Source of the DNA: an uncultured Lacinutrix sp.
Lineage (GTDB): Bacteria > Bacteroidota > Bacteroidia > Flavobacteriales > Flavobacteriaceae
Assembly: GCA_937129145.1 (NCBI GenBank)
Contig: CAKZMU010000009.1
Span: 80,551 to 144,550, forward strand
DNA length: 64,000 nt
Reading direction: 5' to 3'
Positions within the stretch are counted from its first letter, which is position 1, and every line of letters starts with the position of its first letter. This document shows, piece after piece, positions 28,952-51,935 of this stretch. The position numbers and the translations under genes are program-made. The notes below the pieces were generated by a model. The model saw nothing but the letters and a program-made list of their open reading frames with translations. It searched no databases and was not told where the DNA came from.

Positions 28952-29497
28952 TTGAATAAAACAAACATGGAAAATAATTTACACAACAACTATGTCTTTA
29001 AAGCTATGGACGCATATCCATACGAGCTTGAAGAAACATTGGAAGCATTAAACTATGCTTTATCATATAACAATAAAGATGCGCAAGCATTATGCTTAAT
29101 GGGACGTGTTTATGCTGAACAATTAAAAGATTACGAAACAGCTAAACAATATTTTGCTGAAGCTATTGCGCAACACATGGAAATGCCAAAAACATATCCA
29201 TTTTATATCCAAACTTTATTATGGAATGGTGATTATGAAGAAGCAGATAAATTAATAACATTTGGACTAACTGTAAAGGGTACTGACAAAGCTTTATTAC
29301 AATTATTACAAGGTATTCTTTTTGAAAAACAGGGGGATTTTAAGGCTGCTATCAAGGCATATAAAAAAGCTAATAAAACAGCAACAAACAACTGCTTTAT
29401 TGAATATGTGAATAATGAAATATCTAGGGTTAAAAAGAAAATGGACCCCAGAAAGAAGAAGAAAAAGAAGTCTAACAAAAAAAGAAAGGGGAAATAA
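28952..29497 (+). CDS. TPR-like hypothetical protein with a poly-lysine C-terminus
   Basis: 181-aa ORF; TPR-like helices; KKKKKKSNKKRKGK tail. Confidence 0.5.
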   Translation: MNKTNMENNLHNNYVFKAMDAYPYELEETLEALNYALSYNNKDAQALCLMGRVYAEQLKDYETAKQYFAEAIAQHMEMPKTYPFYIQTLLWNGDYEEADKLITFGLTVKGTDKALLQLLQGILFEKQGDFKAAIKAYKKANKTATNNCFIEYVNNEISRVKKKMDPRKKKKKKSNKKRKGK

Positions 29498-29501
29498 AAA
29501 A

Positions 29502-29526
29502 ATCGGCAATCTTGTCTTGCCGATTT
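29502..29526 (+). terminator. Hairpin (weak terminator) between the TPR gene and the tRNA array
   Basis: ATCGGCAAtcttgtcTTGCCGAT followed by tt. Confidence 0.4.
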
Positions 29527-29529
29527 AAT

Positions 29530-29613
29530 GGGAACTCGTCAACGTTGGAGAGTTGGTGCAGATTGTAAACCTGTTGCTTAAATGCTAAGAAAGTTCGAAT
29601 CTTTCAGTTCCCA
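29530..29613 (+). tRNA. tRNA-Tyr(GTA), class II (long variable arm)
   Basis: Acceptor GGGAACT/AGTTCCC, anticodon loop ttGTAaa, variable stem-loop cttaAATGCtaag, T-arm GAAAGttcgaatCTTTC; one A·C mismatch in the anticodon stem. Confidence 0.7.
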
Positions 29614-29627
29614 CAAATAAATAGATT

Positions 29628-29700
29628 GACAAGGTGGCTGAACGGTTAAGGCAACAGACTGCAAATCTGTTTTTTGTGAGTTCAAATCTCACCCTTGTCT
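29628..29700 (+). tRNA. tRNA-Cys(GCA)
   Basis: Acceptor GACAAGG/CCTTGTC, anticodon arm ACAGActGCAaaTCTGT, T-arm GTGAGttcaaatCTCAC. Confidence 0.85.
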
Positions 29701-29706
29701 CAAAAT

Positions 29707-29779
29707 AGTATCGTAGCTCAATGGCTAGAGCGCTCGGTTGTCTCCCGAGAAGTTGCGGGTTCGAATCTCGTCGGTACTG
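29707..29779 (+). tRNA. tRNA-Asp(GTC), noncanonical (A1:U72, U37)
   Basis: Acceptor AGTATCG/CGGTACT, D arm GCTCaatggctaGAGC, anticodon arm CTCGGttGTCtcCCGAG, T-arm GCGGGttcgaatCTCGT. Confidence 0.65.
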
Positions 29780-29780
29780 C

Positions 29781-29844
29781 GAAGCAGTTTAAGAGATGAG
29801 AAGTTTACCCTGAGCGTAGTCGAAGGGAATCTTGTCGGTACTGC
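29781..29844 (+). repeat. 46-nt conserved spacer module (…AAGAGATGAGAAGTTTAccCTGAGCGtAGTCGAAGg) followed by an 18-nt direct repeat (17/18 identical) of the tRNA-Asp T-loop-to-3'-end segment
   Basis: gaatctCgtcggtactgc at 29763–29780 recurs as gaatctTgtcggtactgc at 29827–29844; the intervening module is ~85–90% identical to the one at 30183–30226. Confidence 0.8.
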
Positions 29845-29848
29845 AAAT

Positions 29849-29931
29849 CTGGGAGGATAATCCCGAAGGTTCGGGAGTGGTTTACTCGCTTTGGAAGCGA
29901 GAGGTTGTAGGTTCAAATCCTACCTCTCAGA
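29849..29931 (+). tRNA. tRNA-Pro(TGG)-like gene with an aberrant 29-nt D region; possibly a pseudogene
   Basis: Acceptor CTGGGAG/CTCTCAG (one G·U pair), perfect anticodon arm CTCGCttTGGaaGCGAG, perfect T arm GTAGGttcaaatCCTAC. The D region is ~10 nt too long and contains the hairpin TCCCGAaggtTCGGGA. Confidence 0.45.
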
Positions 29932-29937
29932 CAAAAT

Positions 29938-30009
29938 ACTCCGTTAGTCAAATGGCTAAGACGCCTGACTTTCTATCAGGAATTAAGGGTTCAATTCCCT
30001 TACGGAGTA
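29938..30009 (+). tRNA. tRNA-Glu(TTC), noncanonical (A1:U72, U37)
   Basis: Acceptor ACTCCGT/ACGGAGT, anticodon arm CCTGActTTCtaTCAGG, T arm AAGGGttcaattCCCTT. Confidence 0.65.
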
Positions 30010-30014
30010 CACAT

Positions 30015-30100
30015 TGAGATATAGCTTAATTGGTAGAGCGTCGCTCTCATAAGGCGAATGGTTTAGGTTCTCCCGATAGTTATCGGGACTAATATCTCAA
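30015..30100 (+). tRNA. tRNA-Met/Ile2(CAT)-like gene with an 18-nt hairpin insertion in the T loop; possibly a pseudogene
   Basis: Acceptor TGAGATA/TATCTCA, D arm GCTTaattggtaGAGC, anticodon arm TCGCTctCATaaGGCGA. The T region is TTAG-gttc-[TCCCGATAgtTATCGGGA]-CTAA. Confidence 0.45.
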
Positions 30101-30106
30101 CAACAC

Positions 30107-30179
30107 GCAGGAATGGCGAAACGGCAAACGCACTCGACTTAGAATCGAGAAACTGGGAGTTCGAATCTCTCTTCCTGTA
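30107..30179 (+). tRNA. Class-I (short variable arm) tRNA with Leu anticodon TAG
   Basis: Acceptor GCAGGAA/TTCCTGT, D arm GCGaaacggcaaaCGC, anticodon arm CTCGActTAGaaTCGAG, variable region aaact, T arm GGGAGttcgaatCTCTC, A73. Confidence 0.55.
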
Positions 30180-30182
30180 CGA

Positions 30183-30246
30183 AGTAAGGAAAGAGATGAG
30201 AAGTTTATGCTGAGCGAAGTCGAAGTGAATCTCTCTTCCTGTACGA
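30183..30246 (+). repeat. 44-nt conserved spacer module followed by a perfect 20-nt direct repeat of the upstream tRNA's T-loop-to-3'-end segment
   Basis: gaatctctcttcctgtacga at 30163–30182 and again at 30227–30246; the module agtaaggaAAGAGATGAGAAGTTTAtgCTGAGCGaAGTCGAAGt is homologous to 29781–29826. Confidence 0.85.
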
Positions 30247-30247
30247 T

Positions 30248-30321
30248 GCTCCACTAGCCCAAATGGAAGAGGCAACAGTTTTAAGCGCTGTTAAGTCCAA
30301 GTTCGAATCTTGGGTGGAGTA
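30248..30321 (+). tRNA. Class-I tRNA with Leu anticodon TAA
   Basis: Acceptor GCTCCAC/GTGGAGT (G1·U72), anticodon arm ACAGTttTAAgcGCTGT, variable region taagt, T arm CCAAGttcgaatCTTGG, A73. Confidence 0.5.
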
Positions 30322-30327
30322 CAAAAT

Positions 30328-30451
30328 AAGCTTATGGTGTAATGGAAAGCACACAAGGTTTAGCTCATGCATATCTATTTCAAGAAATAGGTATTCGTGA
30401 ATGCAAAGCATTTCGAACCTTGGAGTATGGGTTCAAGTCCTATTAAGCTTA
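30328..30451 (+). tRNA. 124-nt tRNA-like gene carrying a ~52-nt structured insertion in the anticodon loop
   Basis: Acceptor AAGCTTA/TAAGCTT, D arm GTGTaatggaaaGCAC, anticodon stem CAAGG…CCTTG separated by 59 nt, T arm ATGGGttcaagtCCTAT. Mature anticodon TAG if spliced at 37/38, TCG if at 33/34. Confidence 0.45.
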
Positions 30452-30456
30452 CAAAA

Positions 30457-30527
30457 TAACCTGTGGTGTAACGGTAACACTCAAGATTTTGATTCTTGTA
30501 TTATAGGTTCGAATCCTATCAGGTTAT
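30457..30527 (+). tRNA. tRNA-Gln(TTG)
   Basis: U1:A72 acceptor TAACCTG/CAGGTTA, D arm GTGTaacggtaACAC, anticodon arm CAAGAttTTGatTCTTG, T arm ATAGGttcgaatCCTAT. Confidence 0.8.
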
Positions 30528-30535
30528 CAAAAAAT

Positions 30536-30608
30536 GGAACAGTAGCAAAGTTGGTCAATGCGTCGGACTGAAAATCTGAAAATACAGGTTCAATTCCTGT
30601 CTGTTCCA
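30536..30608 (+). tRNA. tRNA-Phe(GAA)
   Basis: Acceptor GGAACAG/CTGTTCC, anticodon arm TCGGActGAAaaTCTGA, T arm ACAGGttcaattCCTGT. Confidence 0.85.
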
Positions 30609-30621
30609 CTAAAATTAAAGA

Positions 30622-30639
30622 TTCCTGCCTATGCAGGAA
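30622..30639 (+). other. Perfect 7-bp hairpin TTCCTGCctatGCAGGAA inside the array; the agattcctgc motif recurs at 31045–31056
   Basis: Inverted repeat read directly; no T-tract follows, so it is not a canonical terminator. Confidence 0.4.
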
Positions 30640-30767
30640 ATAATATCAAGCTGGTCTTGTTGAGTGTTTCGGTATAGCACTATTGTATAAATCGTTGCAG
30701 AAATGCATCATGAGTTTATGTTCAACTAGACTTGAAGGTTTTGACTGTTAACCAAAAAATGGTCTCC

Positions 30768-30843
30768 CCCTATAGGTCGTGGGTTCGACTCCCACTTATC
30801 CCAATTGGGATAGTAGTTCAGTGGTTAGAACAATAGGATGTAG
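30768..30843 (+). tRNA. Apparently circularly permuted tRNA gene: 3' half (nt 38–73), 3-nt linker, then 5' half (nt 1–37); the mature anticodon would be GTA
   Basis: 3' half: c-CCTAT-aggtc-GTGGGttcgactCCCAC-TTATCCC-a. Linker att. 5' half: GGGATAG-ta-GTTCagtggttaGAAC-a-ATAGG-atGTAg. The acceptor pairs over 7 bp and the anticodon stem ATAGG/CCTAT pairs over 5 bp. Confidence 0.45.
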
Positions 30844-30888
30844 GTGTTGCTGGTTCGATTCCAGTCGTTTGCTTGGAGAAATTCCTTG

Positions 30889-30948
30889 GCAATAGTAGCT
30901 CAATTGGTAGAGCACTGCACTTTTAATGCAGGTTTGGACTCAAAATCC
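30889..30948 (+). pseudogene. Truncated tRNA-Lys(TTT)-like 5' portion with a degenerate T arm and no 3' acceptor strand
   Basis: GCAATAG-ta-GCTCaattggtaGAGC-a-CTGCActTTTaaTGCAG-gttt, then only a 3-bp GGA/TCC stem; no complementary 3' acceptor strand nearby. Confidence 0.4.
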
Positions 30949-30988
30949 ACAATCAAAAGCCCATCATCTTTTAAAACTGATGACCAAC

Positions 30989-31005
30989 GCAGATTGTCAT
31001 TCTGC
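30989..31005 (+). other. Isolated anticodon-arm-like hairpin GCAGAttGTCatTCTGC, a tRNA fragment
   Basis: A 5-bp stem with a 7-nt loop reading as an Asp GTC anticodon. The nearby ggtcgtggga at 31081 resembles the T-arm of the permuted gene. Confidence 0.35.
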
Positions 31006-31450
31006 TCAACAAAAATGACAAAAATAGTAGATTGCAAGTCGGCTTTAGATTCCTGCATTACTGACGCATCGGTCAACACTGGTCGTGGGAATGACAAAAC
31101 TAGAGCAGTCTTGAAAGTGCCTTGAAATACTGATTTTTAATAGTAGAAGTGGTTACTGTTTTGTAATAAGAAATTATATAAATCTGATTATCGATTCATA
31201 TAGTTGTCACAATACTCAGCACTAATTACAGGCACTATTAATATGAGTATTTCCGCACCAGAAAAATGATTTGCTTTCTGCTATTTTTAACAATGAAGAG
31301 ATATAAAAATATACTTCAATTAATGATGAACTCGTCATTGTTTTTTGAAGTTGGTAAGCCTTCCGTTACAAGAATTGCCGCCACGCTCAAAAATGGGCAA
31401 CAATAAATGTTTAATCTTCCTGAAATAAATTCAGGATAAAAAAATTAGAA

Positions 31451-32551
31451 ATGATGAAACGAGTAAGAATTAATGTTGGAGAAGTAGGATTGGTTTTCAA
31501 AAGAGGTGATTACAAAAGAGTAATTACTCAAGGAAAAAACTGGTTAGGGTTTGGCGAGCGTGTTTTAACCTATAACTTAGCTCATGCTTTCGTTGCTCCA
31601 AAAACACTAGAACTCTTGCTAAAAGACGAGGTGTTGGAGGCAATGTTAGACATTATTGAAGTAAAGGATGGTGAACTTGTATTGGTTTACGAAAAAGGGA
31701 GCTTTAAAACTGTTTTAACTGCTGGTCGTTATGTGTACTGGAAGGGTTTGATTAATCGTGAATATACACGCGTTGATTTAAGCAAAATTTATATTACTGA
31801 AAACATTGACAAAGCATTGTTTAGTAACTATGAATTAAGCAAATACATTCGAGTTTTTGAAGTAGCTGCTTACGAAAAAGCTATCCTTTTGGTAGATGAT
31901 GTATATACAAAGACGCTTGACGGCGGTACATACCGATTCTGGAGAAATGATACCACAATTAAAATTGCTAAGGCTGATTTACGTCAGTTACAACTAGAAA
32001 TTGCTGGACAAGAATTGTTAACTAAAGATAAAGCAGCTATTCGTATCAACTTTTACACACAGTATAAAGTAACAGATATTGAAAAGGCTTTACTAGGAAA
32101 CAAAGATTATGAAAAGCAATTATACATTGCTATGCAATTGGTATTGCGCGCTTACATTGGTACTTACACACTAGATGAATTGCTAGAGCGTAAAGAAAAC
32201 ATTGCAGAAGCTGTATTTGAAGATGTTAAAGCAAGTGCATCAAAATTAGGTGTAAGCGTTTTAAGCTGCGGTATTAGAGATGTGATTTTAACCGGAGATA
32301 TGAAAGAGATTATGAACCAGGTTTTAGTTGCACAAAAGAAAGCGCAAGCAAATACAATTACAAGACGTGAAGAAACAGCTTCTACTCGTAGCTTGCTAAA
32401 TACGGCAAAGTTGATGGAAGAGAATAACATGCTGTACAAGCTAAAAGAAATGGAGTATGTTGAAAAAATCGCTGAGAAAATTGGTGAAATCACAGTCTCA
32501 GGTAATGGTGGAATGGTAACACAATTGAAAGAGATTTTCTCTGGAAAATAA
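31451..32551 (+). CDS. SPFH/band-7 (slipin-like) domain protein
   Basis: 366 aa; C-terminal SPFH-like region with a coiled coil (VLVAQKKAQANTITRREETA…). Confidence 0.65.
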   Translation: MMKRVRINVGEVGLVFKRGDYKRVITQGKNWLGFGERVLTYNLAHAFVAPKTLELLLKDEVLEAMLDIIEVKDGELVLVYEKGSFKTVLTAGRYVYWKGLINREYTRVDLSKIYITENIDKALFSNYELSKYIRVFEVAAYEKAILLVDDVYTKTLDGGTYRFWRNDTTIKIAKADLRQLQLEIAGQELLTKDKAAIRINFYTQYKVTDIEKALLGNKDYEKQLYIAMQLVLRAYIGTYTLDELLERKENIAEAVFEDVKASASKLGVSVLSCGIRDVILTGDMKEIMNQVLVAQKKAQANTITRREETASTRSLLNTAKLMEENNMLYKLKEMEYVEKIAEKIGEITVSGNGGMVTQLKEIFSGK

Positions 32552-51576: not shown

Positions 51577-51935
51577 ATTGTTTTATGAATCATTTTGCTG
51601 TAAAAGTATGAAAAAAAGCGAGTTATCAAAATTTTTACTACAAAAAACACCTATGAAATGCTCAAAAACATCGATTAAGTGCATTCTAGGTTACAATTGA
51701 CACTAACTAATTGACTAAATATTAAAAGAATTAACTGTGTTTATAATCCCTTTGTTATCCCTTAATATGGCAAAAATAAATATTTTGTATGTATTTTCTG
51801 AAATATTTTTGGGTTTATTGATATCGTTTCAAAAAACGATAGGTTAAAATTTGACACTTACTTGTTTGTTAAGTCACTCCTATTTCTGTGAAAACAAAAA
51901 GGTTTTAGTAAAAAAACTAAAACCTTGCTTTTGTT

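Follow-up and report, generated by a model that had tools for sequence, protein, structure and literature searches.

What is a dense run of tRNA-like genes, several of them apparently misshapen, doing among the ordinary genes of a flavobacterial chromosome, and should it be read as a ruin, as a set of tRNA genes in pieces, or as a part of the genome that is maintained? The question is raised by a stretch of 64,000 nucleotides (nts), here called the window, from an uncultured Lacinutrix sp. (Flavobacteriaceae; GenBank assembly GCA_937129145.1, contig CAKZMU010000009.1, positions 80,551 to 144,550), for which a preliminary description had proposed some 13 tRNA-like genes, at least seven of them noncanonical, forming either a decaying, horizontally acquired array or a cluster of disrupted or split genes. 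In our judgement the locus is probably a spare tRNA array of phage-like type, partly decayed, held in a conserved cassette between the gene of a TPR-repeat protein and a structured non-coding RNA (ncRNA) followed by the gene of an SPFH protein, with hairpin repeats in the array and a tRNA mimic, the ncRNA, adjacent to it. The region studied was 29400-31300 of the window, where tRNA genes were called with ARAGORN (default, relaxed and intron settings) and families with Rfam, and it was compared with about 200 related loci (labelled L001 and so on) gathered by a scan for the pattern of one of the repeats, the element M, and by a protein-anchored scan, including an SPFH-anchored set of 80 related metagenome loci.

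The array itself is real, and consists of 11 tandem tRNA-type genes on the forward strand within 29530-30609 (1.08 kb), eight of them intact (Tyr, Cys, Asp, Glu, Leu-TAG, Leu-TAA, Gln and Phe) and three disrupted (Pro-like, Met-like and Arg-TCG); two further pieces that had been counted in, a circularly permuted gene and a truncated Lys, are not members. With default settings ARAGORN calls seven genes between 29628 and 30609, namely Cys(GCA) (29628-29701; 65.5 bits with the Rfam tRNA model), Asp(GTC) (29707-29780; 58.3 bits), Glu(TTC) (29938-30010; 65 bits), Leu(TAG) (30107-30180; 66.6 bits), Leu(TAA) (30248-30322; 49.9 bits), Gln(TTG) (30457-30528; 64.4 bits) and Phe(GAA) (30536-30609; 72.6 bits), all of them of class I, the two Leu genes having the short variable arm. 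The relaxed and intron settings add a class-II Tyr(GTA) with an A.C mismatch in the anticodon stem (29530-29614; found at the relaxed threshold only, 15.6 bits), a Pro(TGG)-like gene ending at 29932, and Arg(TCG) at 30328-30452. As the covariance-model check that had been proposed anticipated, the irregular pieces score low (26-36 bits, against 49.9-72.6 for the seven regular genes): 36.3 bits for 29871-29931 and 30.6 for 30020-30078, within the array, and 30.5 for 30889-30955 and 26.2 for 30807-30873, beyond it. The earlier view that only Tyr, Cys, Gln and Phe are canonical thus holds for the Pro-like, Met-like and Arg genes, which are indeed disrupted, but not for Asp and Glu, which are ordinary cloverleaves, nor for the Leu genes, which are well formed; what had looked odd about Asp is the M unit that stands behind it.

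How the three disrupted genes came to be so can be read from their orthologues. In the Pro-like gene (29849-29932) the D arm, which the Rfam match skips, is replaced or extended by the palindrome TCCCGAAGGTTCGGGA (29861-29876), and alignment with the intact Pro genes of L113, L053, L070 and L099 gives about 10 extra nts. In the Met(CAT)-like pseudogene (30015-30101), matched by Rfam only in part, the palindrome TCCCGATAGTTATCGGGA (30071-30088) stands in place of the T loop and the 3′ strand of the T stem; the orthologue is intact in L070 and carries in its T loop, in L107 and L069, a 50-nt copy of another element, E2, so that the window has exchanged one insert for another, the CTAA end derived from E2 being still present. 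The Arg(TCG) gene has E2 in its anticodon loop (30362-30411) with TT on both sides, which is the 52-nt insertion noticed earlier (ARAGORN i(33,52)), and its orthologue in L069 is without the insert. Since these three are disrupted relative to intact orthologues, it is fair to call them decaying, as had been suggested for the whole array; the array is no isolated remnant, occupying the same slot between TPR and SPFH genes across the Flavobacteriales.

Two observations on the tRNAs may be added. The array Asp of the window (loop TTGTCTC, 29741-29747) has a U at position 37, as it has in nine of 10 related arrays (loop CTGTCTC), and so has the array Glu (loop CTTTCTA, 29971-29977), which was checked in the window alone; a purine is usual at this position. 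Evasion of anticodon nucleases has reportedly been proposed for the tRNAs of phage T5, and the U37 of the array Asp and Glu may, by analogy, be related to such evasion. A relaxed ARAGORN call of a tRNA-Thr at 51755-51848 was rejected as spurious AT-rich sequence.

To what does this array belong? Homologous arrays, with 8-22 genes in a shared order, are found at nine genome loci (L070, L069, L099, L053, L106, L113, L081, L096 and L107), in Winogradskyella, Leeuwenhoekiella, Tenacibaculum, Dokdonia, Crocinitomicaceae and uncultured Flavobacteriaceae. The fullest, L070, has 22 genes in the order Lys-Ser-Pro-Ser-Ala-Asn-Cys-Tyr-Gly-Trp-Arg-Asp-Glu-Val-Met-Leu(TAG)-Leu(TAA)-Arg-Gln-Ile-His-Phe, that of L069 has 20, and the array of the window is a shortened derivative of such a fuller type. 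To judge from the sequences, it is a supernumerary set, distinct from the housekeeping one: array Tyr and Gly genes share 54-69% identity with housekeeping genes of the family (61-66% for the Tyr of the window), while housekeeping orthologues among themselves reach 89-97%. With tRNAs of T5-like and Vibrio phages the array tRNAs share 76-83% identity, and the T5-like Vibrio phage VspSw_1, one of whose tRNAs is 83% identical to the Leu(TAG) of the window, likewise carries Leu(TAG) and Leu(TAA) genes of class I side by side; the pair, formerly listed among the irregular genes, is therefore a conserved type and not a product of decay.

The slot is as constant as the array is variable. Upstream stands a TPR-repeat protein gene (28952-29497, forward strand; Pfam TPR families), of which homologues with 35-56% identity stand in the same upstream position in L069, L070, L081, L096, L107 and L113 and in L120-L155, and downstream, after the ncRNA, an SPFH/Band_7 gene (31451-32551, forward strand; PF01145), this arrangement being common to the homologous arrays. 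The neighbouring genes in the window are those of an ordinary low-GC flavobacterial chromosome (recJ, OsmC, CMD-family, TPR, SPFH, M28 peptidase, UDG, tdk, alr and others), and gene content and Pfam reveal neither integrase nor phage gene in the 64 kb, which confirms the core-gene setting first reported. In other genera recJ, UDG, tdk and the rest are swapped for other neighbours while TPR, array and SPFH are kept as a block, which makes of it a cassette and not a case of mere synteny. Within it, among 41 non-redundant loci, tRNA genes number none in 13, 1-2 in six, 3-9 in 18 and 10 or more in four, and across the related Flavobacteriales loci the array ranges from 0 to 22 genes.

Some arrays of the family contain other matter. 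In L099 (read in reverse complement) two GC-richer, structured-looking inserts of 465 and 545 nts lie in the Leu(TAA)/Lys(TTT) and Lys/Arg(ACG) gaps, without an Rfam match at the gathering threshold, and could be large ncRNAs or degenerate introns; the Tenacibaculum array L113 has in its Phe/Arg(ACG) gap a small open reading frame (ORF) for a 161-aa RNaseH_like protein (PF04308), and that of Winogradskyella algicola one for a 103-aa protein of no family (L107:5075-5390).

If the array can be absent from the cassette, what is constant before the SPFH gene? The stretch from 30639 to about 31000 is conserved upstream of that gene in 54 metagenome loci, with or without a tRNA array, beginning 545-1017 nts before the SPFH start codon (590-850 nts in 50 of the 54). 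An alignment of 48 sequences folded with RNAalifold gives for 30646-30865 (forward strand) a consensus of 59 pairs, of which 40 show compensatory changes; 96.9% of the cells are paired, and the covariation score of 0.472 compares with at most 0.119 when pairing partners are slid and is reached by none of 500 shuffles. A covariance model built from the alignment finds the window (226.9 bits) and 62 other loci, that is, 63 loci before an SPFH gene, among them some not used to build it (L183, L192, L195 and L156 at 89-94 bits, L161 and L163 at about 55); it also matches L107 and L070, and tandem tRNAs reach only 19-47 bits. The RNA, which may be named the SPFH-upstream tRNA-like RNA, begins with a 5′ domain (30646-30735) and a hairpin (30743-30764). 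These are followed by a permuted tRNA-like domain (30769-30837), in which a closing stem encloses a T arm (30779-30795), an "acceptor" hairpin (30796-30813) and a D arm (30816-30831), and by a second T arm (30849-30865). All four helices of the tRNA-like domain (helices 6-9) covary in the 48 sequences, the "acceptor" is a closed hairpin of 5 bp, there is no anticodon arm, and positions 23-85 of the 114 of the Rfam model of YrlA (RF02553) align to 30771-30835 with the same architecture. What had been taken for a circularly permuted tRNA gene is thus a domain of another molecule, a separate RNA that on comparative evidence is maintained by selection and mimics tRNA in a domain like that of YrlA.

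The supposed truncated Lys gene fares likewise. The fragment at 30889-30955 (forward strand) has a D arm, a TTT anticodon arm and a degenerate T arm and is without an acceptor stem (Rfam 30.5 bits with a mismatched acceptor); over 35 nts it is 83% identical to the array Lys(TTT) gene of L070. It lies just downstream of the ncRNA core, and its sequence relations mark it as a lineage-restricted fragment, not a demonstrated part of the ncRNA: in many loci the sequence after the second T arm is a D-arm-like GTAGCTCAGTTGGTAGAGC, and a full tRNA-type call occurs in this spacer in six of 51 loci, once on the opposite strand. Beyond it, the non-coding stretch 30956-31379 (forward strand) is kept in the closest relatives only and has no Rfam match; from 30617/30642 to 31379 the identity to L107, L120, L122 and L123 is about 72%.

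The repeats remain to be explained, and one of these, a widespread one, is the 44-nt module named in the preliminary description. Its 31-nt core occurs exactly twice in the window (29795-29825 and 30195-30225, with none expected from 100 shuffles), each time followed by a copy of 18-20 nts of the 3′ end of the preceding tRNA. The first unit (29781-29844, forward strand), behind Asp, has a segment S (29781-29796) partly complementary to the tRNA 3′ end, the core (29797-29829; TGAGAAGTTTACCCTGAGCGTAGTCGAAGGGAA) and the duplicate B′ (29827-29844), equal to Asp positions 57-74 with one mismatch; the second (30181-30246, forward strand), behind Leu(TAG), has an S complementary to the tRNA 3′ end (30181-30196; GAAGTAAGGAAAGAGA), the core (30197-30229) and a B′ that is an exact copy of 20 nts of the 3′ end (30227-30246). 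The site of the first unit is filled in L081, L096, L107, L113, L099, L120 and L123 and empty in L122; that of the second is filled in L069, L070, L053, L099, L107 and L123 and empty in L120, L122, L128, L129, L131 and L132. L122 is empty at both of the sites filled in L123, L081 and the window, and at filled sites the native spacer comes after B′. The housekeeping tRNA-Ala and tRNA-Met of the window have neither M nor a duplicated 3′ end.

M is by no means confined to these arrays. A genome scan with the pattern TGAGAAG-N(4-8)-CTGAGCGNAGTCGAA finds it in at least 118 loci of several phyla, the matches listed including Flavobacteriaceae, other Bacteroidota, Patescibacteria of the candidate phyla radiation (CPR), metagenome-assembled genomes (MAGs) labelled Gammaproteobacteria, Chlorobiota, Cyanobacteria, a DPANN archaeon and others. 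Among 133 listed copies, which accompany 21 tRNA species, a tRNA ends on the same strand within 300 nts upstream in 94 and a tRNA on the opposite strand is nearby in none, the orientation of M being always that of the tRNA; an exact duplicate of 12 nts of the tail after M is found upstream in 72 of the 133. The 33-nt core is a conserved hairpin with a foot resembling a T stem, and most copies are followed by a repeat of the tRNA 3′ end from T-loop position 57 on. With the T of TGAGAAG as position 0, the 4-6 nts before M form the foot, which pairs with the T-stem 3′ strand following it, the inner hairpin closes the loop UGAGCGNAGUCGAA, and natural variation supports the pairing: among 106 unique listed copies, pair -1:33 is A-U in 49, G-C in 40 and G-U in eight; pair 12:29 is C-G in 74, G-U in 12, A-U in 10 and G-C in four; and the U-A of pair 14:27 becomes C-G in L106 and in Flavobacterium repeats. 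As a whole, 91.2% of the cells are paired, with a covariation score of 0.384 against at most 0.126 for slid partners, reached by none of the 500 shuffles, and beside the 14:27 pair the sequences would allow a GNA triloop and a tandem G.A element. The S of arrays and of CPR bacteria matches the duplicated 3′ end as its complement, with a turn of GAA or AAA after the tRNA, and there S-M-B′ is modelled as an acceptor/T-arm minihelix; in single-gene loci of Flavobacteriaceae M-B′ mostly stands behind the tRNA's own terminator, S being about 35 nts long and unconserved. There units are often in tandem, with three copies in L050 and two in L027, L080, L072, L075, L089 and L014, tandem accretion being seen also in L047 and L113, and copies free of any tRNA occur in Flavobacterium (CC-TGAGAAG...GTCGAA-GYA-MAGTCGAA-GG), Cyanobacteria and Alphaproteobacteria.

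By what mode would such a unit arise? Insertion of B-S-M at T-loop 56/57 and insertion of S-M after the tRNA, with a target duplication of 18-20 bp, fit the data equally well. In either case we would see M as a non-autonomous element acting at the DNA level and specialised on the universal T-loop sequence, as it ends at its 3′ side in GTCGAA, a sequence similar to GTTCGAA, is often placed behind the terminator, is polymorphic between close relatives, and has free-standing copies; it would persist because it leaves the tRNA intact.

Around M there are several observations that stand by themselves. Inverted-repeat forms occur in Cyanobacteria and in L001, the one viral contig that was hit (IMG/VR; a tail-gene region of a high-GC phage or of gene-transfer-agent-like type), where CTTCGACTTCGCTCAG ... 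CTGAGCGAAGTCGAAG (790-870) has TGAGAAG in its loop and, from its sequence, appears as a non-tRNA form of the M hairpin; similar inverted repeats are found in L005, L071 and L086. Ten loci of CPR or of "Gammaproteobacteria" MAGs (L002, L026, L030, L034, L036, L038, L079, L097, L101 and L105) have between tRNA and M an extra conserved hairpin, ACTTCGACAAGCTCAG...CTGAG..CGAAGT, the 5′ half of which is nearly the reverse complement of the M inner hairpin, and whole units of about 99 nts are there repeated in tandem. Other modules that duplicate a 3′ end follow Cys (L069:6116-6210, L053:2430-2527 and L106:2430-2530) and Pro (L070:3161-3247, and in L099 and L053); they mimic a T arm with the loop AAAGCGAAGCAAT or AAAGACGAAGTCAAT (a mini-hairpin with a GAA triloop), preceded by a conserved, hairpin-bearing spacer, and appear to be second and third families built like M. 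All copies of M contain a frame of five codons, RTG AGA AGY YTR NNC TGA (29797-29814 and 30197-30214 in the window), with A or G before TGAGAAG in 101 of 106 listed copies and with the change TTTA to CCTG synonymous in that frame; as the same base also pairs with position 33, the frame could be a coincidence. By eye, only the tandem G.A (UGA/GAA) of M fits a hammerhead, CUGA being absent, and for a hairpin ribozyme AGAA and AGUC cannot be set opposite each other, so that both candidates were set aside.

The element E2 answers the question of the "introns" that ARAGORN places in different tRNAs of the arrays, for behind these calls there is one sequence family with an insert of 50-52 nts and the consensus (TT)AGCTCAC, a variable hairpin and TTCGTGAATGCnnnGCAT, then TT; a second subfamily is found in Glu genes. 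There are 16 distinct copies with that of the window, and the 15 outside it share ...TTCGTGAATGCnnnGCAT abutting TT; four of these 15 are co-oriented with the tRNA and lie in the anticodon loop, and 11 are reversed, nine of them clearly in the T loop, as in the Met gene of L107 and L069, in the Leu(TAG) of L081, and in L106, L129, L131, L145 and L154, keeping on the element's own strand ...GCAT abutting TTCGAA. Orthologous filled and empty sites form five pairs (Trp, Gln, Arg(TCG), Leu(TAG) and Met), and TT/AA is duplicated at the target in three of four clear cases. An element found in either orientation and polymorphic between sister arrays would move as DNA, and on these sequence grounds E2 is better described as a mobile hairpin element than as an RNA intron; it would insert, in either orientation, at the TT of TTCGAA-like tRNA loops, a target that explains both the T loops (GTTCGAA) and the anticodon loop of Arg(TCG) (TTTCGAA). 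Several copies, both orientations, orthologous empty sites and a short target duplication are what is seen in miniature inverted-repeat transposable elements (MITEs), although neither terminal inverted repeats nor a transposase were identified for E2. The third repeat, E3, is the palindrome TCCCGA...TCGGGA that disrupts the Pro-like and Met-like genes of the window; elsewhere it lies in the T loops of Pro-like and Leu(TAG) genes, or occurs as a free repeat.

If the ncRNA and the array have partners, these are to be sought in the related loci. Among the 80 SPFH loci RtcB is present in 15, RlaP in 12 and a WYL regulator in 12, and an RNase T-like exonuclease in 11 of the 39 SPFH loci of at least 12 kb; RtcB also adjoins the arrays of L069, L113, L081 and L096. 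In L183 a divergent WYL-WCX regulator is followed by tRNA-Tyr, ncRNA, SPFH, RtcB, two RlaP, RNA ligase (PF09414), an HD-plus-kinase protein and a second RtcB. In L183:5403-16514, as in L192, L195 and L156, this RNA-repair cluster continues after SPFH on the same strand, with two RlaP nucleotidyltransferases and an HD+AAA_33 protein like a kinase/phosphatase, the upstream divergent gene being WYL-WCX(-PhyH). In archaea and eukaryotes tRNA exons are joined by the ligase RtcB, and to our knowledge SPFH proteins have not so far been tied to RtcB operons. PADLOC assigned the SPFH and TPR proteins to no defence system. The RNA repair operon rsr-yrlBA-rtcBA of Salmonella (PMC7790460) and the co-regulation of a tRNA array with rtcB in Anabaena (PMC8421152) parallel these loci, and by this analogy we infer that the cassette may serve a response to tRNA or RNA damage. 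If expressed, the array would supply replacement tRNAs when the housekeeping tRNAs are damaged or translation is stressed, and the ncRNA would work with the SPFH and TPR proteins in an RNA-repair setting (RtcB, RlaP, RNA ligase, WYL regulator), the tRNA mimic acting with them perhaps much as YrlA does with Ro60.

Other explanations have to be weighed against the spare array in its cassette. The locus might be functionless debris, an acquired phage-derived array that is simply decaying and whose odd pieces are random wreckage, and this agrees with the disruption of three of the 11 genes, with the detection of Tyr at the relaxed threshold only, with the range from 0 to 22 genes, typical of dispensable DNA, and with the resemblance to phage tRNAs; we hold it to be unlikely, given that eight full cloverleaves are preserved (the seven of class I at 50-73 bits, though the class-II Tyr has just 15.6), that the slot is the same in a cassette that persists in different genomic contexts, that the "wreckage" resolves into three recurrent sequence families and a covarying ncRNA, and that the foot of M and B′ stay matched to each tRNA across genera. 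It might also be that these are truly split tRNA genes, as the preliminary description had considered, or intron-bearing or permuted ones, which would be cut by an endonuclease or ribozyme and ligated by RtcB, with E2 as an intron and the permuted piece as the source of a tRNA. The frequent linkage of RtcB to related loci would suit such genes, as would the position of E2 in the window, cleanly in an anticodon loop, where its removal restores a perfect TTTCGAA loop. They become very improbable when E2 is found reverse-complemented in T loops, where a transcript would carry its complement, when orthologues are intact without it, when no Rfam intron or ribozyme family matches, when RtcB is not in the window, and when the permuted domain, with its closed hairpin and no anticodon arm, lies inside a longer RNA that is present where the array is absent; the duplicated 3′ ends, likewise once read as parts of split genes, belong to M.

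A further question is whether M acts as RNA, the S-M-B′ minihelix being a tRNA decoy, a protein-binding module like that of Y RNAs, or a ribozyme that releases a 3′ fragment with a 5′-OH usable by RtcB. M is strand-specific and rich in G.U pairs (11:30 is U.G in 42 of 91 listed copies), its orientation is locked to that of the tRNA, S is complementary to B′ in arrays and CPR bacteria, B′ is identical to B in each genus while the hairpin foot covaries with each tRNA, a tandem G.A of UGA/GAA next to a G-C pair can be read from the alignment, and GUCGAAG fits the motif GNCGAAN0-1G proposed as the Ro60 site of bacterial Y RNAs (PMC4201824), although with six fixed bases only. Most single-gene copies of Flavobacteriaceae, for their part, stand behind the tRNA terminator with S unconserved, no known ribozyme family matches, copies free of tRNAs exist in Flavobacterium, Cyanobacteria and Alphaproteobacteria, and presence or absence differs between close relatives, all of which leaves a role as RNA with little probability in our estimate. 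Somewhat less doubtful, but still tentative, is the proposal that TPR protein, ncRNA and SPFH protein form an undescribed, Ro60-independent ribonucleoprotein of Y-RNA-like type for RNA repair or tRNA surveillance, heading RtcB/RlaP operons and with backup arrays accreting beside it; in its boldest version the M units could be minihelix decoys, or ribozyme-released 3′ fragments with a 5′-OH that RtcB could ligate onto tRNAs cleaved in the T loop.

Several points weigh against the interpretation preferred here, that of a partly decayed spare array in a conserved cassette. On the side of expression, no promoter of sigma-70 or Bacteroidetes type is evident before tRNA-Tyr, and the hairpin that comes behind the TPR gene (29500-29526) could act on the array strand as no more than a weak terminator, its T run being on the opposite strand only, for which reason the array may be read through from the TPR gene. 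On the side of repair, the window has within its 64 kb neither RtcB, RlaP nor a WYL regulator, and the link is carried by about a fifth of the related loci; the YrlA match of the ncRNA (32.9 bits) is below the gathering threshold of 69 bits, the consensus of the 5′ domain lacks the GNCGAAN0-1G motif, which Y RNAs have near the 5′ end, and no Ro-binding stem was found in the ncRNA; whereas YrlA is encoded within about 4 kb of a Ro60/Rsr (TROVE) gene on the same strand, no such protein is encoded near the ncRNA in the window, where the neighbours are TPR and SPFH, or in the ten scanned ORFs of L183. As to the repeats, T runs make it ambiguous how many bases are duplicated at E2 sites; positions 7, 8 and 10 of M covary (TTTA vs CCTG) in a manner that no model here explains; no protein family travels with M across phyla, where only local synteny clusters and no transposase or integrase were found; its core is not in the phage and plasmid collections, which gave insignificant partial matches only; and the way in which B′ tracks B in every genus, with S and X staying complementary to B′, could equally mean selection of an RNA minihelix.

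What would be new in this? A tRNA array is a known kind of feature, while M, E2 and the SPFH-linked YrlA-like RNA are, as far as literature searches tell, undescribed: strings of the M sequence return from full-text literature only unrelated primers, and keyword searches for tRNA-linked ribozymes or MITEs in Flavobacteria nothing relevant. At permissive Rfam thresholds no ribozyme, intron, GOLLD, ROOL or tmRNA match accounts for M, E2 or the ncRNA, and self-cleaving classes (hammerhead, hairpin, twister, twister-sister, pistol, hatchet and HDV-like) have none in 29400-31300 at E up to 10. What bacterial tRNA arrays do is a matter of debate, the proposals being backup under translation stress and counter-defence against tRNA-cleaving toxins, and a fixed cassette that unites an array, a tRNA mimic and, in relatives, a repair operon offers a testable physical link in a new phylum. 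The ncRNA, if a true mimic, would extend YrlA-like tRNA mimicry to a setting without Ro60, and M could represent either mobile DNA of a new, tRNA-targeted type or a new RNA motif; at a practical level, duplications of the 3′ end of this kind can cause spurious calls of "intron", "permuted" and "Stop" tRNAs, as they did in the ARAGORN output here.

It remains to place the locus among known systems. With archaeal split and permuted tRNAs, bulge-helix-bulge introns and bacterial group I introns it shares an interrupted anticodon loop, permuted parts and a link to RtcB-type ligases; but E2, of 50-52 nts, also occurs reverse-complemented and is far smaller than the catalytic core of a group I intron (about 200 nts or more; no Intron_gpI match at E up to 10), and the permuted domain, in which the acceptor is a closed hairpin, lacks an anticodon arm. 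E2, E3 and M are rather to be compared with MITEs, repetitive extragenic palindromes (REPs) and the IS200/IS605-derived palindrome-associated transposable elements (PATEs), being short, hairpin-forming, multi-copy, non-coding and variably present between relatives, and E2 in particular resembles MITEs in its two orientations and its approximately two duplicated bases. They differ from all these in targeting tRNA loops with no transposase identified, and M further in being identical across phyla at 21 fixed positions (by design of the search) and nearly so at flanking ones, in its orientation locked to tRNAs, and in a target copy of 18-20 nts or longer, where usual duplications are far shorter. 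Williams is said to have described in 2002 integrative elements that use a T-loop sublocation of tRNA genes and restore the 3′ end; here too there are a tRNA, an element and a displaced copy of the 3′ end that starts in the T loop (G57), with tandem accretion, although the M "element" is of 45-130 bp, no integrase or shared protein is nearby, and one core serves 21 tRNA species.

The ncRNA resembles YrlA (RF02553; PMC4201824) in the order of closing stem, T arm, closed "acceptor" hairpin and D arm, and in related loci it adjoins RtcB-type repair genes as in rsr-yrlBA-rtcBA (PMC7790460); unlike YrlA, it has an extra conserved 5′ domain of about 120 nts and a second T arm, and its partner genes are SPFH and TPR. 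The tRNA clusters of T5-like phages (Demerecviridae) are akin to the array in identity (76-83%) and in the class-I Leu pair, in contrast to which the array is chromosomal and the M core is not in the phage collection. Closest are the L-arrays, known from Bacteroidetes among others, for which horizontal spread is reported and, in Anabaena, induction by translation stress and co-regulation with rtcB (PMC8421152). As in these, supernumerary tRNA genes are densely packed on one strand with spacers of a few nts (11 in 1.08 kb, where about two per kb or more define an array), some are pseudogenes, the content varies between relatives, the tRNAs are phage-like, and the rtcB association reported for Anabaena is seen in related loci. 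The present array is shorter (11 genes, up to 22 in relatives, the strict "array unit" needing at least 20), and it is set apart by its fixed slot between the TPR gene and the ncRNA with its SPFH gene, and by the three families of hairpin repeats inside it.

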